A stretch of DNA of 64,000 nucleotides, from positions 55,926,001-55,990,000 of the forward strand of contig NC_086108.1 of the NCBI RefSeq assembly GCF_963921235.1, read 5' to 3'. Numbering within the stretch: the stretch's first letter is position 1; every line of letters begins with the position of its first letter. Below are positions 1-64,000 of this stretch, one piece after another. The DNA comes from Mobula hypostoma. Taxonomy: Eukaryota. Position numbers and translations under genes: made by a program. The notes beneath the pieces are model-generated. The model saw nothing but the letters and a program-made list of their open reading frames with translations. It did not search any database and had not been told where the DNA came from.

Positions 1-765
1 TTACGCTTACAGGGATAAGTGCCGGGTGGGAGATCCGTGGGGAGGGACGTGTGGATCAGGGAGCCGCGGAGGGACCAATCCCTGCGGAAAGCAGAGAGGG
101 GTGGAGAGGGAAAGATGTGCTTAGTGGTGGGGTCCTGTTGAAGGTGGCAGAAGTTGCAGAGGATAATGTGCCGGATCCAGAGGCTGGTGGGGTGGTAGGT
201 GAGGACAAGGGGAACTCTGTCCCTGTTGTGGTGGCGAGAGGATGGGGTGAGGGCCGAAGTGTGGGAAATGGAGGAGATGCGAGTGAGAGCATCATTGATG
301 ACAGCAGAAGGGAAACCACAATCCTTAAAGAAAGAGGACATTTGAGATGCCCTGGAACAGAAAGCCCCATCCTGGGAGCAGATGTGGCGGAGACGGAGGA
401 ACTGGGAATAGGGAATGACATTTTTGCATGTGGCGAGGTGGGAAGAGGTATAGTCGAGGTAGTTATGAGAGTCAGTGGGCTTGTAGAAGATGTCAGTGGA
501 CAGTCTGTCTCCAGAGATGGAGACCGAGAGATCGAGAAAGGAGAGAGAAGTGTCCGAGATAGACCAAGTGAATTTCAGGGCTGGGGGGAAGTTTGAAGTA
601 AAATTGATGAAATTGACGAGCTCAGCATGGGTGCAGGAAGCAGCAACCAATGTAGTCGTCAATGTAGTGAAGGAAAAGTTGGGGAGAAGTACCAGAATAG
701 GTTTGGAGCACAGACTGTTCCACATAACCAACGAAGAGGCAGGCATAGCTGGGGCCCATGCGAGT
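1..765 (-). mobile_element. Penelope-like element (PLE) RT region, 5'-truncated, running off the window edge
   Basis: Minus-strand translation MGPSYACLFVGYVEQS...FLHYIDDYIG. After a +1 frameshift near 645 it continues ALKFTWSISDTSLSFLDLSV...YKPTDSHNYLDYTSSH...IPYSQFLRLRHICS, which are typical PLE RT and thumb motifs. Confidence 0.92.
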
Positions 766-3650: not shown

Positions 3651-5074
3651 AAATTTGGATTTTGTTTTGGGCGCACTTCAATGTACTCTGCTCCTTTTTT
3701 GAAAACGTCTTGTAATAAAGTCTCATCCTTCACAACATAATGAATGTAACTCCATTCTGGAGGTATTTGTTTTCAACAGCCTTTTCCAACAGGTCCAGTC
3801 CAGAGCCTACAGCAACTACCAATGTTATGGTTTTAACATGTCTTTGGCATTTCGCTGTCATAGCAGCAAATCCACCTATTCCAGTCCTTTCATGTGGAAC
3901 AGAGAAAGTTGAGGTGTAGTGTTTGTTAGCCATTCAGCTCCTTATCTTTCTGGTTTATCAGTGTAACACCACACCCATTGTCAAGATGAACTGTCACAAT
4001 TATGTCTTTTATCTTCATTACATCAGTCAATGCTTCTTCTCTTGTTCAGTCAACCCTCTTTATGTGGAACATGGAGAGGCTACACTGTGTTGCAATCTTC
4101 ATTTGCTTTCTTCTTACACTGACATTGGTGGACACTTAGGAAATTTGTAGCAACTTCACTTGATTTCTTTCCATTCTGTTTTCTCAACTTTATTATTGTT
4201 CCACAAGCCCCGGCATTATGGCCCTTCAAAGCATAGGTGTGACACTTCATCTTTGAACTAGTATTAAGAAGATGTATTATTCCCTCCATAATAACCTTGA
4301 TTTAGCTTCTGAAAGTGGTTTAATTTGCTTCAGCGCAGAGTCTTTTACAGCATGTCCTCTGTGCATGCTGTTACATGGAATAGCAGGCCCAACTTGGATG
4401 TTTTGAGTATTTTTACTTGCCGATTCCCTGCTTTTCCATGATCTTGCTTGGCTTTAGGTTCAGGTGATTGTTTAACAAATTCCCAGATGCCTGAAGGATT
4501 TTAAGATCAGGTTATCTCGAGCTCAGCAGATTTTTCAGTAAAGTATATTTAGGAGCTCCCATGACACTGATTAAAGTAGACTTACATTTATTTCCATTAT
4601 CAATTTCAGGAAAGAAATGTGCCGATGCTCCACACATCAAATGTAGCAACTGAGCCTATTGTTGTAATCATTACTCTTTTCATAATTTTTCTATTTTCTT
4701 ATGCACGTAGTTGTTAGTTTGTCATCATTCCCCCTGGGTTTTTGCTAAAATGAGTGTTCTTCAGTCACCTCACTTCAGGAACAATTTTCCTCATCACCAA
4801 AGTCATCACCTTGAACAAAAATGGGAGACAGATACATCAATTAGACAGCTTTATCCATGGCTTGCTGAGCTAGCTCAAGTCTAGCAGCTACATCCCAAAT
4901 GGCTTCCAAACGTTAGGAAGCCTTTAATGCACAATGACCCCTACAGGCTTGGAAGGTAATGATCAATCTGACATTAATGCACTCTCCTTCTGTCTCTTCT
5001 CTCTCTGCTTTTCTTATTGCCTCTGCCTCAGCCCCTGCTCTTCCCCTTTTCCTGCCGCTGACTCTGTCTCTTCC

Positions 5075-5165
5075 ACGGATACTGCCCGACCTGCTGAGTT
5101 CCTCCAGCATGTTGTGAGTGTTGCTTTGACCCCAGCATCTGCAGATTATTTTGTGTTTCTGTCTC
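5075..5165 (+). mobile_element. Short PLE 3'-terminal fragment between 26-bp direct repeats
   Basis: GATACTGCCCGACCTGCTGAGTTCCTCCAGCAT...CCAGCATCTGCAGA, flanked by TTCCTGCCGCTGACTCTGTCTCTTCC at 5049-5074 and 5166-5191. Confidence 0.85.
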
Positions 5166-5589
5166 TTCCTGCCGCTGACTCTGTCTCTTCCTCTCCTTCT
5201 CCTTTCACAAGATGAAACTTCTGCCACTCCACCCTCTGAAGGCCTCTCAGAATCTTATATAGTTCAAACATCCCCTCCCTCTTTCATAAACTTCATCAGA
5301 CACAGGCCTAGCTGTCCCACCTTTCCTGGATCCTGCCCATTCTGGAATTTAGTTTCACCAAATGGAGCTGGGATAATATTGAAAGCCTGAGACGATGCAT
5401 TGGAGCACAGAGAAGCTCTGTATATGTGAAAGAAGGAGAGCACCACCCCACAAACTGCTCATCCACCTGTCTTGTCAGCCACCTCCAAAGTGTCTGTTGT
5501 TTTCACATTGACCTCACTGGCCTCCTCAAAACCCACTTAACCGGTATGGAATCACATCATCCTTGATTGCAAGAGACTGCCTAAGGAGA

Positions 5590-10637: not shown

Positions 10638-12199
10638 GTGGAGACAGCTACTAGATACCACTTAAGAGGTACCTAGATGAGCACTTAAGTTAACGAGGCA
10701 TGGAAGGCTATGAGCCAGGTGCTGGTTAAAGGAATAACTAGAGATGTATACTCAATGGTTGGCCTAGACAGGGATGAAGAGACTATCTTTATATTGTATG
10801 ACCTCTTAGCTGTACGACTGCAGTTTTTCATTGGAGTCCGAACAATGCTATTTACAGCAGAAAGAAATTGATTACTAATTTATGCAACCTTCCTGTGAAT
10901 TTGGTCATTGAGTTCTTATTTTCTTCAGCTGGGCTGTAACGTAAAGCTCTCTGCAAGTATTCTGACTCTAAACTGGCTAACTGGACAGATCGACTACATA
11001 AATCAATGGGGTCACCTGTCAAAGGATTCCTGCCTATTTGCATCTCATCCCAGTGGATTGTTAACCTTTATTTCTCTCATTTCTTAAAACCTTTCCCTCA
11101 ATGGAGACCAGAGGAGTCACCATGGCAAGAGGCCCTTTGATTGCAGCCAATGTTCAAAAATAGAAATGCAATTCAGTGACCTGTGTTTCTACTATCTCAC
11201 TCCAGTTGTATTGTTGATAATTCAATTTAATTCTGCAACCTTTATTGCTAAATGTGTGTGTCTGTATAAGGGTGGATTATCTGGTTGTTTAAAATATCTC
11301 TGGCACACTGGGAATTGAAGGCTGAATCTACCAAGCTAAATGATGTAGCAGCTCTGCGCTGGATGGTTAAAAATAGTAACAGGTGAGGATAACATTTTCT
11401 TCAATCCCCTGAGATCACCTTGTAGGAATGTAATGAAACAGTCTATTTGAATTGATTAACTCCAGTGTGATGCTGCTATTTAGCTGCTGACAGTGCATTT
11501 TAGTCTCCCTTCTAGGCTTTTGTCTTAAATATCAAAGAAACAAATGTTCTGTCTGGGCATTTGCTATTATGAGAATTTTGTGCCAATGGCTGCCACACCA
11601 ATTTGATGACTCCACTGCCAACTTCTTATCATTCATTTTCAAATGTTCTTTATCTTCTAATATATGTAACCTTTATCATTAATTTCAGCACAGTATTTGG
11701 ATTGCTGATCTAAATGGGTAAGATACTTGGTTGAGAAATGGAGTAATTTTGTTGCACCACAAAACAGTTGGCAACGGTCTGCCTTTGTAAGCTCCCTTTC
11801 TCAAACTTATGTCAAAGTAATGCTGCTGGCATTTAACATGAGTCTGTTCCAGTTAGCTGCTATTGCCTATTTGCTCACTCTAGCTCACAGTCCAGCATCA
11901 CTGATGGTCCTCTCTGCTGATAGTAATGTGACTCTATCACCAGGGTGATGATCTGGGCTTAAACCCCAAGGATAGGGTAGTTTGTCCTGCCAAGATGGGC
12001 CTCTACCAGTGTGAATGTCCTTGACAGACTCAAATCTGTCTCCTCATATGAGGACACCACTTGAAGTCCTCCCAGCTGGGCTAACAATTCTCTACTTCCA
12101 TTCTGAAACAGATTATTTTGGAATTAAATTGAGTGAGCCATATGAAAGTTTGTGACTTGGAGGAACTTATGCTAGTTTAGCTCAACTTATGTGTCATTT

Positions 12200-28665: not shown

Positions 28666-29413
28666 CACTGGACAACAAAGATTTTGCTTCCTGAATACTT
28701 CTGGATGTATAATTATTGATTTAAGCTGCTGATCACGAACAACATCATAACATTTCCCTATCACACACCATTTGTTTTTAAAGAATGCCTATATTTGTTA
28801 TTTCAATTCATAATTTAATTCAGAATTACTGATGCCAAGATTAAGGATGGCATTTTTGTTGGTACACAAGTCAAACTTCTTGTAGAACCAGAGAAAATCA
28901 CGTGGAAGATATTCAAGGATGTTGTAAATTTTTCTAGTAAGTACACAGCACCAAACTACATGCAGCTGGTTGACAACATGCTTCAAGCATACAAAACCAA
29001 GAAGTTTTCATGGAAGGTTCATTTTCTGCATTCCCATTTAGAATTCTTCCCTGCAAGTCTTGGCGCTGTCGGTGACAAGCATGGTGAAAGATGTCAGTGG
29101 GGCATTATGGTGATGGAGAAATGGTATCAGGGCAACTGGAATCTATCAACGCTGGCTGATTATTGTTGGTCACCTAAGCGAGAAGCCTCAGACACTGAGT
29201 ACAAATGAAAATCATCAACAATTTAGCTTAGTTGAACTATTGCAAAGCCTCAACTATTAAATGCATTATGTTTAATAAAAGTTAATTCCCTGTTTCTCCA
29301 AATTTCTGTGTGATAAAAGTGGACTGAAATTATATTTGTGTTCAGCTTCAAGTCTATCATAAACAAAAAAAATCTGAGAAAATTACACTTCCAAAAATAT
29401 TTGTTGTCTGGTG
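28666..29413 (+). mobile_element. Chapaev3 (CMC) DNA transposon, internal-deletion derivative
   Basis: TIRs CACTGGACAACAAA / TTTGTTGTCTGGTG (12/14 match), 3-bp TSD ATA, and transposase C-terminus KVHFLHSHLEFFPASLGAVGDKHGER...MEKWYQGNWN..LADYCW (28960-29208). Confidence 0.85.
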
Positions 29414-30297
29414 ATATTGAGAACATGAATGATGAATCCTTGAAAGTGAGTCCATAGGTTGCGGAACAGTTCAGTGATGGGGCGAGTGAAGTTATCCCCA
29501 CTGATTCAAGGGCCTGACGCTTCAGGGGTAACAACTGTTCCTGAACCTGGTGGTATGAGTCATGAGACTTCTGTACTTCCTTCCTGATGGCAACAGCGAG
29601 AAGAGAGTATGGCCTAGGTGGTGTTGGTCCATGTTGATGGATGCTGCTTTCCTGCAACAGCGTTCCGTGTAGATGTGCTCAATGGTGTCTCTATAGAAGT
29701 TTGTGAAAGTTTTAGATGTCATGCTGAATCTTCACAAATTACTAAGGAAGTAGAGGCACTGCCGTGCTTTCTTCATAATTGCACTTATGAGGTGGGCCCA
29801 GGACAATTCTCTAAAATGATAACTGTGAGGAATTTAACATTGCTGACCCTCTCCACCTCTGGTCCCCCAATAAGGACTGGTTCATGGGCCTCTGGTTTCC
29901 TCCTCCTGAAGTCAATAATCAGCTCCTTGGTCTTGCTGACATTGAGTAAGAGTTGTTGTTGTTGTGGCACCACCCAGCCAGATTTTCAAACTTCTTCCTA
30001 TATGCTATTCATTACTAGGTTTGATTCAGGCAATGACAGTAGTGTCATCAGCAAACTTAAATATATTATTGGAGCTGTACTCAGCTACACCATCTTAAGT
30101 ATAAAGCGAGTAGTACAGGGGGCTAAGCACACAGCCCTGTGGTGCACCTGTGCTGATGGAGATTGTGGAGGAGATGTTGCCAATCCAAACTGACTGAGAT
30201 CTACAACAGGAATTCTGCAGATGCTGGAAATTCAAGCAACATACATCAAAGTTGCTGGTGAACGCAGCAGGCCAAGCAGCATCTATAGGAAGAGGTG

Positions 30298-30334
30298 CAG
30301 TCGACATTTCAGGCCGAGACCCTTCGTCAGGACC
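30298..30334 (-). ncRNA. Minimal type I hammerhead ribozyme motif (PLE-type)
   Basis: Minus strand reads GGTC-CTGACGA-AGGGTCTCGGCCT-GAAAT-GTC-GACT: CUGANGA and GAAA core, short stem II, GUC cleavage triplet and short stem I. Activity untested. Confidence 0.7.
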
Positions 30335-30366
30335 TGACGAAGGGTCTCGGCCTGAAACATCGACTG
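30334..30366 (+). ncRNA. Hammerhead ribozyme core (mirror copy)
   Basis: CTGACGA-AGGGTCTCGGCCT-GAAAC-ATC-GACTG. The 5' strand of stem I is lost at the palindrome centre. Confidence 0.55.
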
Positions 30367-30579
30367 CACCTCTTCCTATAGATGCTGCTTGGCCTGCTGC
30401 GTTCACCAGCAACTTTGATGTATGTTGCTTGAGATCTACAAGTGGGGCAATTGGGGATCCAATTGCACAAGGAGGTGCTGGTGAAGCCCAGCAATTATTT
30501 CTCAGTGGCAAATAAACCAAAGAATACAACTATATACTTCATTAATAACACTTTCTGGTAAGCTATCACAGCAAATGAT

Positions 30580-31160
30580 GGAGAAGCAATGCAGATTCAA
30601 GGGTCAAGGCAAGTGGGTGCGAGGCAGAGTGAGAGCGAAGGAAGATCCGAAGTTTGATCGATCTAAGCACCAGGCTGATTTGGAAAGGTTGAGTATAGGC
30701 CAAAACGTGGCTGTGGGGTGCAGGCTCAGAGCATACCGAAGTGACAGGGCCCGAGTCCAAGAATGAGGAATGACCCAATATTTGGATCATTTAAATGCCA
30801 GGGAAGCTTGGAAAGGCAGAGTGTTGGGACCAGAGGCAAGGGCTGGGCTAGTTGTGCTTGCTGCTGGCAATGTATACTTGGCTCTACACTGCAAATGAGG
30901 CTGCGGCCTGCTCTGACTGCAGTGATGCCTGGCTTCATGTCTGTGGTCTCTCTTCCATTCTGAACGCTATTTGCTTACTTTAATTGTTTGCATGATTTGA
31001 TTTTTGTTTTTTTTTCTTCTCTGCACATCTGGTGTTTGACAATCTTTTATTAATGGTTCTTTTGGGTTTTTATGTTTTGTGACTGCCTGTAAGCAGACGA
31101 ATCTCAATGTTGTAAAATGTATACATATTTTGATAATGAATGTACTTTGAACTTGAATTT
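30580..31160 (+). mobile_element. Non-autonomous element with Rex1-type 3' tail
   Basis: Ends GATAATGAATGTACTTTGAACTTGAA like the Rex1 tails here. The non-coding body has an imperfect internal repeat (..TTTGATCGATCTAAGCACCAGG..TTGGAAAGG at ~30650 and ~30780). Confidence 0.6.
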
Positions 31161-33930
31161 TGAGGTATTGCGGCCAAGATCTTGAAGCTTATAGATTAGT
31201 TTTGAGAAGATGATAGTGTTGAGTGCCAAGCTGTAGTCAATAAAGATCATCCTGATGTATGCATCTTTGCTGTCCAGATGTTCCAGGGTTGAGTGAAGAG
31301 TCAGTGAGATGGCATCTGCTGTGGACCTGTTGTGCCAGTGGGAAAACTGGAGCAGATCCAAGTCACTTCTCAGGCAGGGGTTGATATGTTTCATCACCAG
31401 CCTCTCAAAACACTTCATCACAGTGGATGTAAGTGCAACTGGACGATAGTTATTGAGGCTGGTTACCATGTTCTTCTTAGGTACAGGTATGATTGAAGCC
31501 TGCTTGAAACAGGAGGGTACCACAGATTGCTGAAGTGAGAGGCTAAAGATATCAGCGAACACTCCAGCCAGTTGATCAGAACAGGTCTTTCGTATTTGAC
31601 CAGGTACCCCATCCGGGCCAGATGCTTTCTGTGGGTTTATCCTCCTGAAGGATGTTGGTTTTAGGAACTGAAATCACAGGGTCATCAGGGGCTGTGGGAG
31701 TTCATGAAGGTTCCTCCATGTTTTGCCACAGATATCAAGCATCCTTCATTGATTCAGGTTTAGTCTGGAATTGCCACTTTGCCCGCAAGGTGGCTTTCTG
31801 GAGATCGTACCTGGACCTCCTGTATCTTATTTGGTCACCAAACCTGAATACCTCTGAACTGCAGATCTCATGATTCATCCAGAGATTCTGGTTGGGGAAG
31901 ACTCTGAATGATTTTGTTAGAACACACTCATCTACGACTGTTTTTATAAAATCTGTGACAACTCTGGTGTACTCGTTCAACAGAGGCCATAAGACCGTAA
32001 GACATAGGAGCAGAATTAAGCCACGTGGCCCATTGTGTCTATTACATCATTCAACAATGGCTGATCCTTTTCTCGCTTCCTCAGCCCCACTCTCCAGCCT
32101 TCTCCCCGTAACCTTTAATGCTGTGTCCAATCACGAACCTATTAAATTCTGCCTTAAATACACCTAATGACCTGCTGCTTATGGTAGTAAATTCCACAAT
32201 TTCACCACCCTCTGGTTAAAGAAATTTCTCCACATCTCTGTTAGAAATGGACATCCCTTTATCCTGAGGCTGTGCCCTCTTGTCCTAGACTCCCCCATCA
32301 TGAGAAACATTCTTTCCTCATCTACTCTGTCTAGGCCTTTCAACATTCGAAAGGTTTCAATGAGATACCCCCTCATCCTTCTAAATTCCAGGGAGTACAG
32401 ACCCAGAGCTATCAAATGTTCTTCATATGATAACCTTTTCATTCACGTAAACCTCCTCAGAACCCTCTTCAGTGTCAGCACATCTTTTCTTAGATGAGGA
32501 GCCCAAAACTGTTTACAAAACTCAAGGTAAGGCCTCACCAGTGCCTTATAAAGCCTCAGCATCACATCCCTGATCTTGTATTTCTAGACCTCTTGAAATG
32601 AATGCTAACATTGCATTTGCCTTCCTCACTACTAACTCAACTTGCAGGTTAACCTATAGAGTGTTCTGCACAAGGACTCCCAAGTCCCTTTGCATCTCAG
32701 AGTTTTGGATTTTCTCCCTGTTTAGAAAATAGTCTGCACATTTATTTCTACTACCAAAGTGCATGACCATGCATTCTCCAACATTGTATTTTACTTGCCA
32801 CTTTCTTGCCCATTCTCCTAATCTGTCTGTCCTTCTGCAGCCTACCTGTTTCCTCAACACTACCTGCCCTTCCGCCAATTGCCGTATCATCTGCAACTTG
32901 GCAATAAAACCATCTATTCCATCATCTAAATCGTTGATATACAGCATAAAAAGAAGTGGTCCCAATACCGGCTCCTGCGGAACACCACTAGTCACTGGCA
33001 GCTAACCAGAAAAGGATCCTTTTATTCCTACTCACTGCCTCCTACCGATCAGCTAATGCTCTAACCATGTTAATAACTTTACTGTAATACCATGGGCTCT
33101 TAGCTTGGTAAGCAGCCTCATGTTTGGCACTTTGTCAATGGCCTTCTGAAAGTCCATATATACAACATCCACTACATCCCCTTTATCTATCCTACTTGTA
33201 ATCTCCTCAAAGAATTCCAAAAGGCTTGTCAGGTAAGATTTTCCCTTAAGGAAACCATGCTGACTTTGTACTATTTTATCCTGTGTCACCAAGTACTCCA
33301 TAACTTCATCCTTAACAATTGACTCCAACATCGTCCCAAACACTGAGGTCAGGCTAACTGGTCTATAATTTCCTTTCTGCTGCCTTCCTCCTTTCTTAAG
33401 TGCACTGATGAGAACTCGAACACGGTCCAGCCCACCAACTCAAAGCAATCCTATCTCTGGAGCCTTGGTCTTTAGCCTCTGCCTGTATGCAGGTAGAAAG
33501 ACAGCCAAGTGATCAGATTTCCTGAAATACAGTCTGGACATGGAACAGTAAGCATTCCTGATCATAGTATAGAAGTGGTCTAATGTGTTGGGACCACTGG
33601 TGTTACAGACTATATGCTGATGGTAATTGGGCAGAGATTTCTTCAAACAAACCTGATTGAAGTCCCCGTTTATAATTTGTTTGCTGATTGCAGCATGCAG
33701 TATCTCAAGTGCCTTATTAGAGTTAGCTGATGGTGTAATGTAAACTGGGCTCAGGATCATGGAGGAGAACTCTCTTGGTTAATAGAAGGATCAGGACTTG
33801 ATCGTTAGGTGTTCCATGTCAAGGCAACCAGAGAATGACAAAACCACCACAAAGAGTTTATCATAAAACACACACACTCACCTTTTGTCTTTTCCGAATC
33901 TGCAGTTCTGTCCATCCTGTGTATCAGGAA
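31161..33930 (-). mobile_element. Rex1/Babar LINE 5'/middle part (APE and RT N-terminal half), interrupted by CR1
   Basis: GDFNQ..LKKSLPNYHQH...[36 protein letters not shown] and [11 protein letters not shown] motifs. Confidence 0.9.
31988..33400 (-). mobile_element. CR1 LINE, 5'-truncated
   Basis: QHGFLKGKS, YMDFQKA, GVPQEPVLGP and YINDLDD motifs; tail CATAAGACCGTAAGACATAGG on the + strand. Confidence 0.92.
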
Positions 33931-42574: not shown

Positions 42575-42792
42575 AAGAGACTAGGGGAATTCAGTGAGTC
42601 AGGCAGCATCTGTGGAGAGTAATGGACAGCTGACGTTTTGGATTGAGACCCTTCATTAGCCCTGATAAAGAGTCTCAGTCCAAAACGTGAACTATCCATT
42701 TCCCTCCACGGATGCTGCCTGGCCTTCTGAGCTTCTCTAGCACTTTGTTTGTTGCTCCATATGTCCGCACCTGCAGCCCCTTTTGTCTCCAT
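42575..42792. mobile_element. Older palindromic PLE-terminus insertion
   Basis: CAGGCAGCATCTGTGGAG...ACGTTTTGGATTGAGACCCTTCATTAG C CCTGATAAAGAGTCTCAGTCCAAAACGT...CTCCACGGATGCTGCCTG, centred at ~42660. Confidence 0.85.
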
Positions 42793-46974: not shown

Positions 46975-49783
46975 TGTGGCATTCTGAAGGCGTCGACAGC
47001 TTCCCCAGCATTCCTGGTGGCCAACTTGTGTGTTTGTGGGTCACCCTGACTGTAAGTGGGGTGTGTGATAATCACCTCTCCGGTCTGTATGTGACTGGGC
47101 TGGTTCTCACTGAGCGATGGCGCTCTGTCTGTTATTGTGCTTGTCGCAATAAAACCAGCAATTGAGATAAACGAGCTCTACTCTTCTGTCATCATGGTCT
47201 GAAAGCTCACCACATTGGTGTCGGGAGTGGGATTAGAAATTGACAGCAAGGTTGAAGAGCTACAATGTTGGATGAAGCGCCTCAAATCCAGGGAATGTCA
47301 AGCAGTTTGCTTCCCCCACACCCCGAGGCTAGGCTCCCGAAGACGGGGTGCCGACCCGGAGGGAGAACTTGGGAACCGAGCTTTGTGCCTTCCCAATGCG
47401 ACAGGCGTACCCAGGGTACAGCGCGGAACGCATCACCTGCTACCCTTGCGGCCTGCACCAGGGAACCCAAGACGCCATAGCCATGGGAGGACGGACAAAG
47501 CGGCAGGCACCACCCATGCCGCCAGAGAAGGACCAACGAGCCCCAGCAATTAACATCGCAAAGTCCTCCCTGAAGCTCCCAGAACACACAATCGTACCAG
47601 CTGCCTGGAGCCTTACCAGGCGTAAGTCAAACTTGCCACATGGCACAACGGATGGAGCCCTACGGAGACGGTGGTGAATCTTTCCCTGGCACTGGAGGCT
47701 GATGCCCTGTGGGCCCTCCTCGACATAATGCATTTTCGGAAGATCTCTGCCATTATGCTCAGTATGGCTACCCGCCCTCCCCCAACACTAAAGGCACTGA
47801 TGCCAGAGCACCCTCACCTGACATCACCATCATTGCTGTCATTGCTGGCTAAGGTGCTGGCTGAGGCAGAGAGGGCAGAAGCAATTTTAACCCGCCAAGG
47901 CGTTCCAGCATCGCCACCCCACGCCACCTGGCTGGGCTTGTGTCACTGAGTCAGAGGTGGAGAAGCCAATGAGACAGGTCCGACCAGCTCCGTGACGGGC
48001 CCCTACTACCAGTGTGGCAAGGCAGGCCATGTGGCCTAGGACTGCCCCACACCAGCACCACACCACAACCCAGCGCAACCATCGGGAAACGCCAAGAGGG
48101 TGGCACTGGCTGAAACCTCTAGCAGAGTCCCTTCATTGTCAACTCTCCAGGTGGGGCATTTGGATGGAGAGCAAGGTTTATACATGGACTGCATGGAGGA
48201 GAGCACAGATGCTGTGTGTTGGTGGGGTCAACAATCACCGCCATCCATCTGGGTGTCCTCCCCAACACGGACCAGCCACCCCCCACCTGGGTGGACAACA
48301 ATGGCAATCCAGCTGGCTACTGTCACCGGCGACTGTGCGGCAATGAGAGGGAAGATGAGGCGGCACATCACAGTGGGGAGAAGCACAGTGGAGCACGAGC
48401 TGTGGCTGGCCGACATCCAGGAGTCCTGCATCATTGGCCTGTTGGGGGCCCATGTGGATGTGCTGGTGGCAACATTCTACCTCGGCGCTGAAACTGTGGC
48501 TCTCTGGCGGGGCGGCTCCAGGAAGTGGACTAGGCGGGCACGGCAACGACTATCACCGGTCCTACAGCGGCCCACCGCGGTGCAGCACGCTGCGCAGTGG
48601 CCCAGTGCAACACTGTGGGAGCAGGGGCAAGCGGTGGGTGGTGGTACCTCAGGTGGCAGCCAGTGGTGAGGTAAACCTCCCCACCATTGACCACCAGCAG
48701 CTGCGCAGCAAGCAGGAGACTGATCCCCTGCTGGCTTGGATGAGGGGATGGCTGAGTGTGGGATGGCGGGCCAAAGTGCGCAGAGGTCTCCGCCCTGGAT
48801 CCAGTGGGGTGCACTGGAGGTGCGCAACGGGTGGTTGTTCCAGTGGTGACAGTCTCCTGACAGTGACAGGCATCTCCTGGAGCTGGTCGGCCCCAGAGGC
48901 TCTACGCTGCGTAGCTGCGGTCAGTGAAAGGGCTGGTGGGGGCCAGCCATTTCGGGGTCGCAAAGACGTTGGGCAAGCTGGGCAAACGCTTCTATCGGCC
49001 TGGGTACAGGCAGGATGTGGAGCTATTCATGCACTGCTTGTGACGCTTGCACGGAGGGGGCCAGGGCACCAATGCAGCAGTATGGGTCTACTGCCCTACC
49101 AGCAGAAGGGACTGTCTGCAAGGGGCCAGAAGAAGTGCTCAGTCGCATCTCCAAGGTGGTCTCATGGATGCGGTTGCCCGAGCGGCAGAAGGCAGTCAGG
49201 CTGCACTGAGACCCGCAGGCACCATATTGACCCTTGGCCACCCCCAACCCAGCAAGGCTGAAGGGAGGAAGTGACACTCCAGATGTCCTGCCAATTGCCT
49301 CACCAAACAGTGCCTCCCCTGGGGTGGGGCACAGACATCCCCCAGCGCCCCAAGGCAGTGGTGTCAACCACCACTGGGATTTTGGGACTTTGTTGTGGAC
49401 ACTGCAGTTGCCGAGGATGGCTGAGCCATCCGGTGGGGAAGTGTAGCGCTCCTGGGGTGTGGTCAACAGCTGACCCCAGCATTCCTGGTGACCAGCGCTA
49501 CTTATTGTTCTTGTTTTCAAATGTGTCTAGGGAATTATGGTGAATTGTACAAGTTAATTTATTTTTACATTTTAGCTTGGGTTATACAGCTGTTCGCTTG
49601 TGTGTTTGTGGGTCACCCTCACGAAACTGGCGTGTGTAATAATCACTTCTCTATCTGTACATGACTGAGTGAGTTCTCACCTAGTGATGGTGTTCTGAGT
49701 GCTATTGTGCTTGTCACAATAAAACCAGCAGTTGAGATAAATTAGATCCTCTCGTCTGTCATCATGGACTGAATGCTTGCCCG
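46975..49783 (+). mobile_element. Two-LTR Gypsy element, internally deleted (no RT/RNaseH seen)
   Basis: 5' LTR 46975-47214, 3' LTR 49442-49783, TSD ATAT. PBS TGGTGTCGGGAGTGGGAT at 47216; purine-rich PPT before 49442. gag WHNGWSPTETVVNLSLALE, knuckle QCGKAGHVA*DC, protease remnant WLADIQESCIIGL, integrase zinc-finger remnant HFGVAKTLGKLGKRFYRPG..CDAC. Confidence 0.9.
47216..47233 (+). promoter_or_regulatory. Primer-binding site complementary to tRNA-Leu 3' end
   Basis: TGGTGTCGGGAGTGGGAT begins 1 nt after the LTR-terminal CA and differs by one base from the complement of vertebrate tRNA-Leu(CAG) as I recall it. Confidence 0.75.
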
Positions 49784-57344: not shown

Positions 57345-57848
57345 GGAGGAGACAAACACCTTACATTCCATTAGGGTAGCCTCCAACCTGATGACATGAA
57401 CCTCGATTTCTCCAGCTTCCAATAACATTCCCCCCCCCCTTCATTCTTCTTCAATTCCCCACTCTGGCCCCCTTCTTATTTCTTCTCACCAGTCGATCAT
57501 GTCCCTCTGATGCCAATGCCCCTTCTCTTTCTCTCATGATCCATTCTTCTCTCCTATCACATTCCTTCTTTTCCAGCCCTTTACCTCTTCCACTTATCTC
57601 CCAGCTTCTCACTTCATCCCCCATCCCCCACCTACCTGGTTTCACCTATCACCTTCTAGCTTGAACTCCAGCCCTCCCTCGCCTTCTTATTCTGGCTTCT
57701 TCTCCCTTCCTTTCCAGTCCTGATGAAGGGTCTCAGCCCAAAATGTTGTGTTTATTTATTTACATAGATGCTGCCTGACCTGCTGAGTCTCTTCAGCATT
57801 TTATGTGTTTTATCTGGATTTCCAGCAGCTGCAGAATCTCTTGAGTTT
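57345..57848 (+). mobile_element. Penelope 3' end: GIY-YIG C-terminus, pyrimidine-rich UTR and terminal repeat with a mutated hammerhead
   Basis: HLTFH*GSLQPDDMNLDFSSF; C/T-rich tract; CAGTC-CTGATGA-AGGGTCTCAGCCC-AAAA (57715-57743, GAAA mutated); GATGCTGCCTGACCTGCTGAG. Confidence 0.85.
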
Positions 57849-62109: not shown

Positions 62110-63212
62110 TACAAGACATAGGAGCAGAATTTAGCCATTTGGCACATCAAGTCTGCTCTGTCATTCCATCATGGCTGATTTATTTTGCCTTTCACCCCCA
62201 TTCTACTGCATCCTTTCTGTAACCATTGACACTCTTACCAGTCAAGAACCCATCAACCTCCAATTTAAATATACCCAATGTCTTTAAATGTACTCAGTGA
62301 ATTCCACAGATTCACCACGCTTCTCCTCATCCCTTTTCTAAAGGAATATCTTTGTATTCTGGGGCTGCGGCTTCTGGAATCATCCTCTCCAAGTCCACTA
62401 TCTAGGCAGTCAAATGTTCCTCATATGTTAACCCTTTTATTCCTAGGATCATTCTCATAAACCACCTCTGCATTCTCTCCAACGCGAGTATACATCCTTT
62501 CTTAGATACTAGCCATAAAGCTGCTCTAAATACTTCTCTCTGTCTCTGATCCTTCTCTGAGTACTGACTCATGGACCTCTGATTTCTCTGTCCTGAATTG
62601 TACAATCAGTTCCTTGGTCTTATTGACATTGAGTGAGAGAATTGACACCACCACCTTTTCCTTACCAGAATTCAAAGTTCAAACCATTCTGAAAATCATA
62701 AAACTACTTATCAGCAGCCAACCTGAAAAGGTCCCCTTTATTCCCACTCTTATCCTCTTTCCAGTCATACAATCTTCTATCCATGTTATTATCTTTCCTG
62801 TAATACCATGGGCTCATGTTTACAGCCTCATATGTAGCACTTTGTTGAGGGCCTTCTGAAAATCCAAGTAAGCTATATCAATGGATGGACACAAAATGCT
62901 GAAGGGTCTCAGCCTGAAACATCAACTGTACTGTTTCCCATAGATGCTGCCTGGCCTGCCGAGTTCCTCCAGCATTTTGTGTGTGTTGCTTGGATTTCCA
63001 GCATCTGCAGATTTTCTCTTGTTTGTATATCAACCAAGTCTCCTGTGTCTTTCCTCCCTGTTATTTCCTCAAATAATTCACAGATTTATCAGGCAAAATT
63101 TCCCCTGAAGGATACATACTGAATTCCTTCTATTTTATCATGTGCCTCCAAGTACCCCAAAACCTCATCCTTAACAATGCACTCTAACATCTTACCAAAC
63201 ACTGAAGTCAGG
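62110..63212 (-). mobile_element. Decayed CR1 fragment with internal deletions and inserts
   Basis: LTSVFGKMLECIVKD..YLEAHDKI and LERMQRWFMRMILG motifs; tail AAGACATAGGAGCAGAATT. Confidence 0.8.
62882..63025 (+). mobile_element. PLE terminal insertion with short 5' inversion and 8-bp TSD
   Basis: TATATCAA at 62874-62881 and 63026-63033. The 5' ACACAAAATGCTG is the reverse complement of internal CAGCATTTTGTGT. Partial hammerhead TGAAGGGTCTCAGCCTGAAACATC. Confidence 0.85.
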
Positions 63213-63855: not shown

Positions 63856-64000
63856 ACAAAATGCTGGACGAACTCAGCAGGTCAGGCAGCATCTATGAAA
63901 ATGAATGCATTTTGGGCCAAGACTTTTCATCTGGACGGGAAAGGAAGGGGGAAGATGCCAGAGTAAGAAGGTGGGAGGAGAAGGAGGAGGAGAAGCTGGA
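63856..64000 (-). mobile_element. Penelope 3' terminus running off the window
   Basis: Reverse complement of the 57650-57810 region. Confidence 0.8.

Follow-up and report, generated by a model that had tools for sequence, protein, structure and literature searches.

A palindromic insertion in a decayed LINE of Mobula hypostoma, very probably the truncated, head-to-head terminus of a Penelope-like element

The window, a 64,000-nucleotide stretch of Mobula hypostoma contig NC_086108.1, contains a palindrome inserted into a decayed retroelement. Its two arms (30232-30331 and 30333-30432) are 100 nt each, 98% complementary and separated by a single nucleotide, which bears out the earlier description of a near-perfect palindrome with 100-bp arms and a 1-nt centre. 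The inner perfect stem alone measures 25 bp, compared with 6-10 bp in 20 of 20 shuffled sequences. The two mismatches in 100 positions are adjacent (30305-30306 vs 30359-30358), and both arms read CA on the plus strand. The insert is flanked by a 12-bp TSD, TGAGATCTACAA, with copies at 30195-30206 and 30430-30441 on the plus strand that are identical at 12 of 12 positions. This TSD overlaps element sequence at both ends: the last four nucleotides of the left copy, ACAA (30203-30206), are also the native end of the element, and the last three nucleotides of the right arm, TGA, are common to the right copy. In the short-read table the family contigs align from 30203 on, with loose ends ahead of that position.

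The left arm (30232-30331, minus strand) is a 5'-truncated pLTR end with the element sense on the minus strand, and the right arm (30333-30432, plus strand) is the same pLTR end without a tail. The arms meet in a head-to-head junction, CAGG-A-CCTG (30332-30333), at the upstream edge of the hammerhead core and with a 1-nt overlap. The left arm alone carries a one-sided extension of 25 nt (30207-30231, minus strand; 29 nt with microhomology), the "tail" of Penelope-like elements (PLEs). While the palindrome arms described earlier are real, the insert is 223 bp long and not 201 bp, and it is asymmetric by these 25 nt, which had been omitted. A segment of the tail (30218-30226) forms the 3' strand of a 9-bp stem with 30277-30285, and the predicted stem-loop is a candidate RT-binding fold. 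The stem is kept in six of six aligned tailed arms, with no compensatory changes. Of the insert's two ends, the short one falls within this stem-loop and the long one just past it.

The host of the insertion is a decayed, RT-bearing LINE on the minus strand (29414-30490), split by the palindrome and with its upstream part at 31104-31724. Its frame matches RVT_1 in Pfam (E=1e-8). The earlier label "Rex1" (Rex1/Babar-like) is plausible for this element, which was matched here as an RT-bearing LINE. Deletion of the insert together with one TSD copy restored a continuous RT-like frame, and the reconstructed empty site aligned without gaps at the site to both of the two LINE paralogues tried. The proposal that the TSD cuts an RT frame cleanly therefore held in that the TSD is exact and the frame is restored on removal, but the LINE had already decayed and has stops nearby. 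At three positions both TSD copies depart in the same way from the LINE family sequence in the short reads; these shared differences and the nearby stops imply that the insert is younger than the decay of the LINE. Empty sites in organisms B and D were considered as orthologues and set aside, being indistinguishable from LINE paralogues. Some 50 bp to the right of the palindrome, the same LINE is interrupted again by an insertion of about 670 bp (30490-31160).

At the ancestral CpG site beneath the mismatches, the seven other arms in the window that cover it read CG in three cases, TG in three and CA in one. The three CG arms support the earlier reading of the mismatches as CG>CA decay of one CpG, although 30306 has no row of its own in the read table, possibly owing to the way the mirrored part is handled. 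Since the same site has decayed in four of the seven other arms, a double hit at one CpG is unremarkable.

The element family is identified by a copy on the plus strand (57351-57848) in which a GIY-YIG C-terminal remnant, a pyrimidine-rich UTR, the core and the arm follow one another on one strand. The remnant (57351-57485) matches the C terminus of a PLE protein (tblastn E=1e-5 to P0002). Because the arm follows the GIY-YIG remnant on the same strand, the core-bearing strand is the PLE sense strand and the arm is the pLTR end. The idea of a non-coding insertion built solely of the hammerhead-bearing PLE terminus is upheld. At the window start lies a well preserved PLE reverse-transcriptase ORF fragment (3-765, minus strand) that runs off the edge; it is 75-77% identical to ray proteins, with best named relatives in Hypanus and Mobula. 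Its homologues carry PF00078, and 5 of 50 carry PF01541 (GIY-YIG). The homologues P0001-P0005 have a Cys-rich linker, at the start of which the window fragment ends.

Compared with endonuclease-bearing (EN+) PLE insertions, a PLE RT and C-terminal GIY-YIG ORF are linked to the arm indirectly, through the homologous copy and the homologues of the RT fragment, the insert itself being non-coding; an inverted 5'-truncated copy adjoins head to head; the one-end tail falls slightly under the usual 30-40 bp; and the exact short TSD leaves an empty site collinear with the paralogues. The locus is thus very probably a young and minimal insertion of a cartilaginous-fish, endonuclease-bearing PLE in head-to-head form, composed of inverted pLTR, pLTR, one-sided tail and TSD, with the rest truncated away, and now a neutral fossil. 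The 64-kb window holds 10 arms at 8 places, and at 3 of these 8 places they stand head to head. In four public short-read runs, 6,630 to 75,608 contigs per run were aligned on 29900-30362. The summed depth over the arm in run X1 was 4-11.5 million versus 13.9 for an exact flank contig, which shows a very large family, summed contig depth not being copy number. One arm copy without a core (5049-5191) lies between exact 26-bp direct repeats, unusually long for a TSD.

Beyond this family, a Pfam search for host genes in 300 of the 339 non-repeat ORFs of at least 50 aa recognised no host exon, though short exons could escape such a search. RT-related matches were obtained for two of these ORFs and weak, sub-threshold matches for six. 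A weak C2H2 zinc-finger match (11088-11315, plus strand; E=7e-4) lies below the cut-off and is possibly due to chance or transposon-derived. A 129-aa frame (28819-29208, plus strand) has the look of a remnant transposase, and a block rich in GC and dense in ORFs (47200-49540) that of a decayed LTR element; neither has a Pfam match.

The hammerhead-like sequences were inspected on both strands. Each strand reads CUGACGA-A-stem II (4 bp, two G.U)-GAAA-N-NUC-GACU, and the CTGACGA-stem II-GAAA core of the earlier note was recovered once per strand, at 30334-30357 (plus) and 30307-30330 (minus). On the plus strand, the minimal type I hammerhead-like core (30334-30365) has a stem I broken by A.A at the second pair, ACAU at 15.1-16.1 and a predicted cut after 30361. 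On the minus strand (30299-30334), stem I has 4 bp, one of them G.U, 15.1-16.1 is AUGU and the cut is predicted after 30303. The minimal type I pattern, CUGANGA / GAAA / NUH with an extra nucleotide before stem II, is present on both strands. Helix I, which has 4-5 bp in this class, is predicted with 4 bp on the minus strand and is broken at its second pair on the plus strand. The palindromic 15.2-16.2 of a dimeric helix III is lost, with ACAU (plus) and AUGU (minus) compared with ACGU. A toy helix III duplex yielded -5.0 and -9.8 kcal/mol for the sequences as found, versus -14.1 kcal/mol with ACGU. The cores described earlier are not intact, as the helix III palindrome is CpG-decayed in both and stem I is broken on the plus strand.

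The loose core motif by itself gave 7 matches where 7.3 are expected by chance, so that the hammerhead call rests on its context. Across helices I and II of 10 decayed arms, a comparison of low power, compensatory change was found in none of 8 pairs, and 76.9% of cells were paired, not above shuffles. The Rfam covariance search that the earlier note had itself proposed as a check gave no hammerhead match up to E 10, and nothing in the whole window reached gathering. Matches to mir-3926, mir-2131 and mir-662 were discarded as generic hairpin matches below gathering. A search of viral and metagenome contigs with the core pattern returned 0 matches. A 22-nt arm pattern hit seven metagenome loci and one genome locus; all eight agree over 22 nt only and were discounted as chance matches. 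As a family motif the sequence conforms to the minimal-hammerhead pattern; the two copies here are probably inactive, given their damaged helices and the more stable hairpin. Minimal hammerheads are described as requiring a dimer and as cleaving weakly even then (Cervera and de la Pena 2014, PMC4209133).

In 57690-57722 and 63925-63990 (minus strand), the core is directly preceded by a pyrimidine tract with a terminal CAG (in the second copy CCG), like a 3' splice acceptor. The intron of Drosophila virilis Penelope is described as ending at helix I (PMC4209133). By analogy, the tract-CAG/CCG of these two copies, which keep upstream sequence, may recall the Penelope intron end, as a lead only.

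The full-length hairpin was predicted at about -208 (plus) and -214 (minus) kcal/mol, the mismatches forming G.U pairs on the minus strand. Forcing the hammerhead fold in the full transcript cost 53 (plus) and 56 (minus) kcal/mol. The competition between hairpin and ribozyme fold that had been anticipated is accordingly seen in the model, with the hairpin favoured by 53-56 kcal/mol, and the predicted hairpin stands on condition of transcription.

Two more head-to-head junctions are present in the window. The first is an older palindrome of a related subfamily (42575-42790), with 54-bp arms scored at 82% and a centre in the same register, 1 nt shorter. Its left arm seems to be deleted internally, and its flanks yielded no TSD of at least 6 nt. 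The second is a lopsided junction on the plus strand (62874-63033), in which a 13-nt inverted stub (62889-62901) faces a tailed sense arm starting in the core, with a possible 8-bp TSD and 7 extra nt. Here, TATATCAA flanks both sides, its left copy being interrupted by the 7 extra nt. The two palindrome centres differ by 1 nt and belong to different subfamilies, and all three junctions of the window differ in centre and subfamily. With these and others in short-read contigs, head-to-head mini-palindromes are not rare.

Among the 15 joints listed of 606 in the short-read contigs, at least 8 tie varied left-arm positions to 30333-30338 (runs X1, X5 and X15). Since 5 of those 8 contain unknown letters in between, the reads fall short of proving that the 5' boundary is fixed. 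The loose ends at 30333 were rejected as such a boundary, for in consensus they look like the purine-rich sequence natively upstream, which is absent here. The deepest joint listed in the DNA runs (30302 to 30336) exits the left arm at 30302, a position that mirrors the first base past the predicted cut. Three letters of this joint fit either side, and a deletion between GAC repeats spanning the hairpin would account for it just as well. Other joints, listed with no strand, lead from 30252-30259 back to 30203-30208, suggesting partial tandem copies of the tail end, or from 30333-30334 to 30297-30300, which might be short tandem hammerhead repeats.

Inverted pLTRs, tails, TSDs and palindromic junctions are described features of PLE insertions in PMC3846280 (Arkhipova et al. 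2013), PMC8557442 (Craig et al. 2021) and PMC11167929 (Frangieh et al. 2024), the first of which reports head-to-head inverted pLTRs, a 31-bp one-sided tail, 8-10-bp TSDs and junction palindromes. The back-to-back structure is no surprise but a standard PLE product of inverted pLTR plus tail, recurrent in the window and in the family. Like the EN+ PLE insertions in PMC3846280 and PMC8557442, the ray insert has a head-to-head inverted 5'-truncated copy, a palindromic junction, a one-end tail, a short TSD and another non-LTR element as its target. It differs from them in that it has no ORF body and its arms are stumps of about 100-125 nt, so that the whole insert is one hairpin, and in the lengths of its tail (25-29 vs 30-40 nt) and TSD (12 vs 8-10). 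As in Poseidon_Ac (PAc, PMC11167929), the two ends lie about a tail apart and an uncut hammerhead is kept in the cDNA. The distance from the long end to the start of stem II is 116-120 nt here, versus 111-118 nt in the anole element, measured there from the ORF start located at stem II. In contrast to Poseidon_Ac, the homologues of the ray element have a Cys-rich linker that may be Neptune-like, the Neptune clade having a Zn-finger-like linker between RT and EN, and the ray junctions show 3-4-nt microhomology; the main text of PMC11167929 does not deal with the joining of inverted arms.

The cores share with metazoan PLE minimal type I hammerheads, as described in PMC4209133, the conserved core, the extra nucleotide before stem II, a short helix I and the absence of helix III. 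They differ in lying 3 nt apart, in a G10.1.U11.1 wobble for G-C and in the loss of palindromic 15.2-16.2 in both arms; pairs on opposite strands 100-700 bp apart were noted there in 2014. Non-LTR retrozymes, according to bioRxiv 10.64898/2026.07.22.740005, are likewise non-coding, pLTR-derived, hammerhead-bearing and found in a chondrichthyan, but their tandem direct repeats permit dimer cleavage, whereas in the ray insert the pair is inverted and each strand bears a single core. Assignment to that class was rejected, as its members have direct repeats in tandem and two or more hammerheads on the same strand. A MITE or class II foldback element, which would show symmetric terminal inverted repeats and uniform copies, was also rejected, given the 25-nt asymmetry, the single arms of most window copies and the differing junctions. 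In the literature covered, largely open-access papers, no account of such palindromes in sharks or rays was found. The ray palindrome adds another PLE insertion of known build, and its value is that of one data point on PLE insertion mechanics.

The ends of the insert bear on how it formed. Their spacing is 25-29 nt, and the stopping points of the two arms, at the upstream edge of the core, differ by no more than 1-2 nt. As both arms retain sequence upstream of the cut site, the template was uncut. Both arms also carry T30242, a minority variant making up no more than 19% of the family depth in X1 and 3% in X5, and A30275, another, with ceilings of 30% in X1 and 15% in X5. This sharing indicates that the arms derive from one molecule or one source locus. 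The same two positions were considered as private mutations marking arm-to-arm conversion and rejected, the reads showing them to be subfamily variants. In vitro, both DNA strands are cut and extended by the anole PLE protein, a predicted dimer with two RT starts that bracket the tail; its main template is uncut RNA, and its RT start site is described as "not homologous" to the cut DNA (PMC11167929).

We lean towards priming on both target strands as the route of formation. The PLE enzyme would make a staggered cut leaving 12-nt 3' overhangs, and both target 3' ends would prime reverse transcription on the PLE RNA, one at the distal start through 4-nt ACAA pairing and the other 25-29 nt inside through 3-nt TGA pairing. 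Both cDNAs would extend as far as the uncut hammerhead's upstream edge, be joined end to end via the 1-nt overlap and then be filled in. Later, the same decay-prone CpG would have been hit by two C-to-T deaminations on the minus strand, and any transcript would form the hairpin of about 100 bp without self-cleavage. Microhomology at both target ends and the lopsided junctions speak, in our reading, for priming from the two nicked strands rather than for fold-back alone. Microhomology at both junctions nevertheless stands against the scheme, given the non-homologous RT start in the anole element. In L1 twin priming, both target strands prime to give an inversion with microhomologies, and the product arms do not overlap; in contrast, both ray arms copy the same segment. 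The identity of the insert and this two-primer mechanism, taken together, are probably the best overall explanation.

Alternatively, though rather unlikely, one cDNA (or, as Arkhipova et al. proposed, an antisense template) could have primed itself at the hammerhead edge, copied itself and joined the target by the TGA microhomology. PMC3846280 interprets the junction palindromes of PLEs through such self-priming. It would explain the common origin of the arms equally well, as they are identical save for one CpG, minority subfamily variants included, and the native end CAGGACTG is weakly self-complementary. However, a 1-nt loop is unable to serve as a priming hairpin without slippage, and the stop of the short arm near those of other copies (45757; stub at 62889) is left unexplained. 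The junction at 62.9 kb is likewise unaccounted for, since its 13-nt stub facing a full arm is impossible from the fold-back of a finished cDNA.

It is improbable that the palindrome itself is a non-autonomous unit copied whole by the PLE enzyme, giving many loci with one centre (a "retro-MITE"). Some of the joints listed do recur in two organisms at depths well above single copy, which for the exact flank contig in X1 is 13.9: the joint 30236 to 30333 has depths of 108.8 (X1) and 105.3 (X5), and 30302 to 30336 has 276.8 (X1) and 162.3 (X5). Yet contig depth is not copy number, a 100-bp hairpin is a poor RT template, and the three head-to-head junctions of the window are unlike in centre and subfamily.

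An active ribozyme switch or a selected source of hairpin RNA (Dicer/ADAR) is very improbable. The predicted hairpin is stable, and the family arm sequence is present in X15, a run guessed to be RNA, but the insertion is young and lies inside a decayed LINE, its cores are damaged and a host exon went unrecognised in the ORFs scanned. The Dicer or ADAR substrate envisaged earlier was not supported, as the Rfam miRNA matches lie far below cut-off and no transcript, small RNA or editing was found. An assembly or library artefact (fold-back chimera) is hardly credible: among the pieces listed, from runs of which X1 may be the source sample, no contig bridges the locus, and the exact locus is unconfirmed by reads, but the flanks are unmirrored and rejoin into one LINE, the TSD is exact, the insert is asymmetric by 25 nt, the arms carry CpG decay, and an older decayed palindrome of like build lies 12 kb away.

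The locus is most likely neutral, and its use is that of a clean, young specimen of PLE insertion. In practical terms, such palindromes risk mis-annotation as MITEs or miRNA hairpins. The formation of PLE inversions and tails and the in vivo cutting by minimal hammerheads are still described as open in PMC8557442 and PMC11167929. Quite tentatively, ray genomes may hold a very large natural record of PLE insertions, in which the two ends would mark the two RT starts and the centre the template end, mostly the upstream edge of the hammerhead and sometimes exactly the predicted cut (joint 30302 to 30336). If true, the mini-palindromes would settle PLE inversions as priming on both target strands and would provide the first in vivo footprint of minimal-hammerhead cleavage, with long hairpins seeded across the genome. 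A junction census in a ray genome could test both the formation of inversions and tails and the cutting by minimal hammerheads in vivo.
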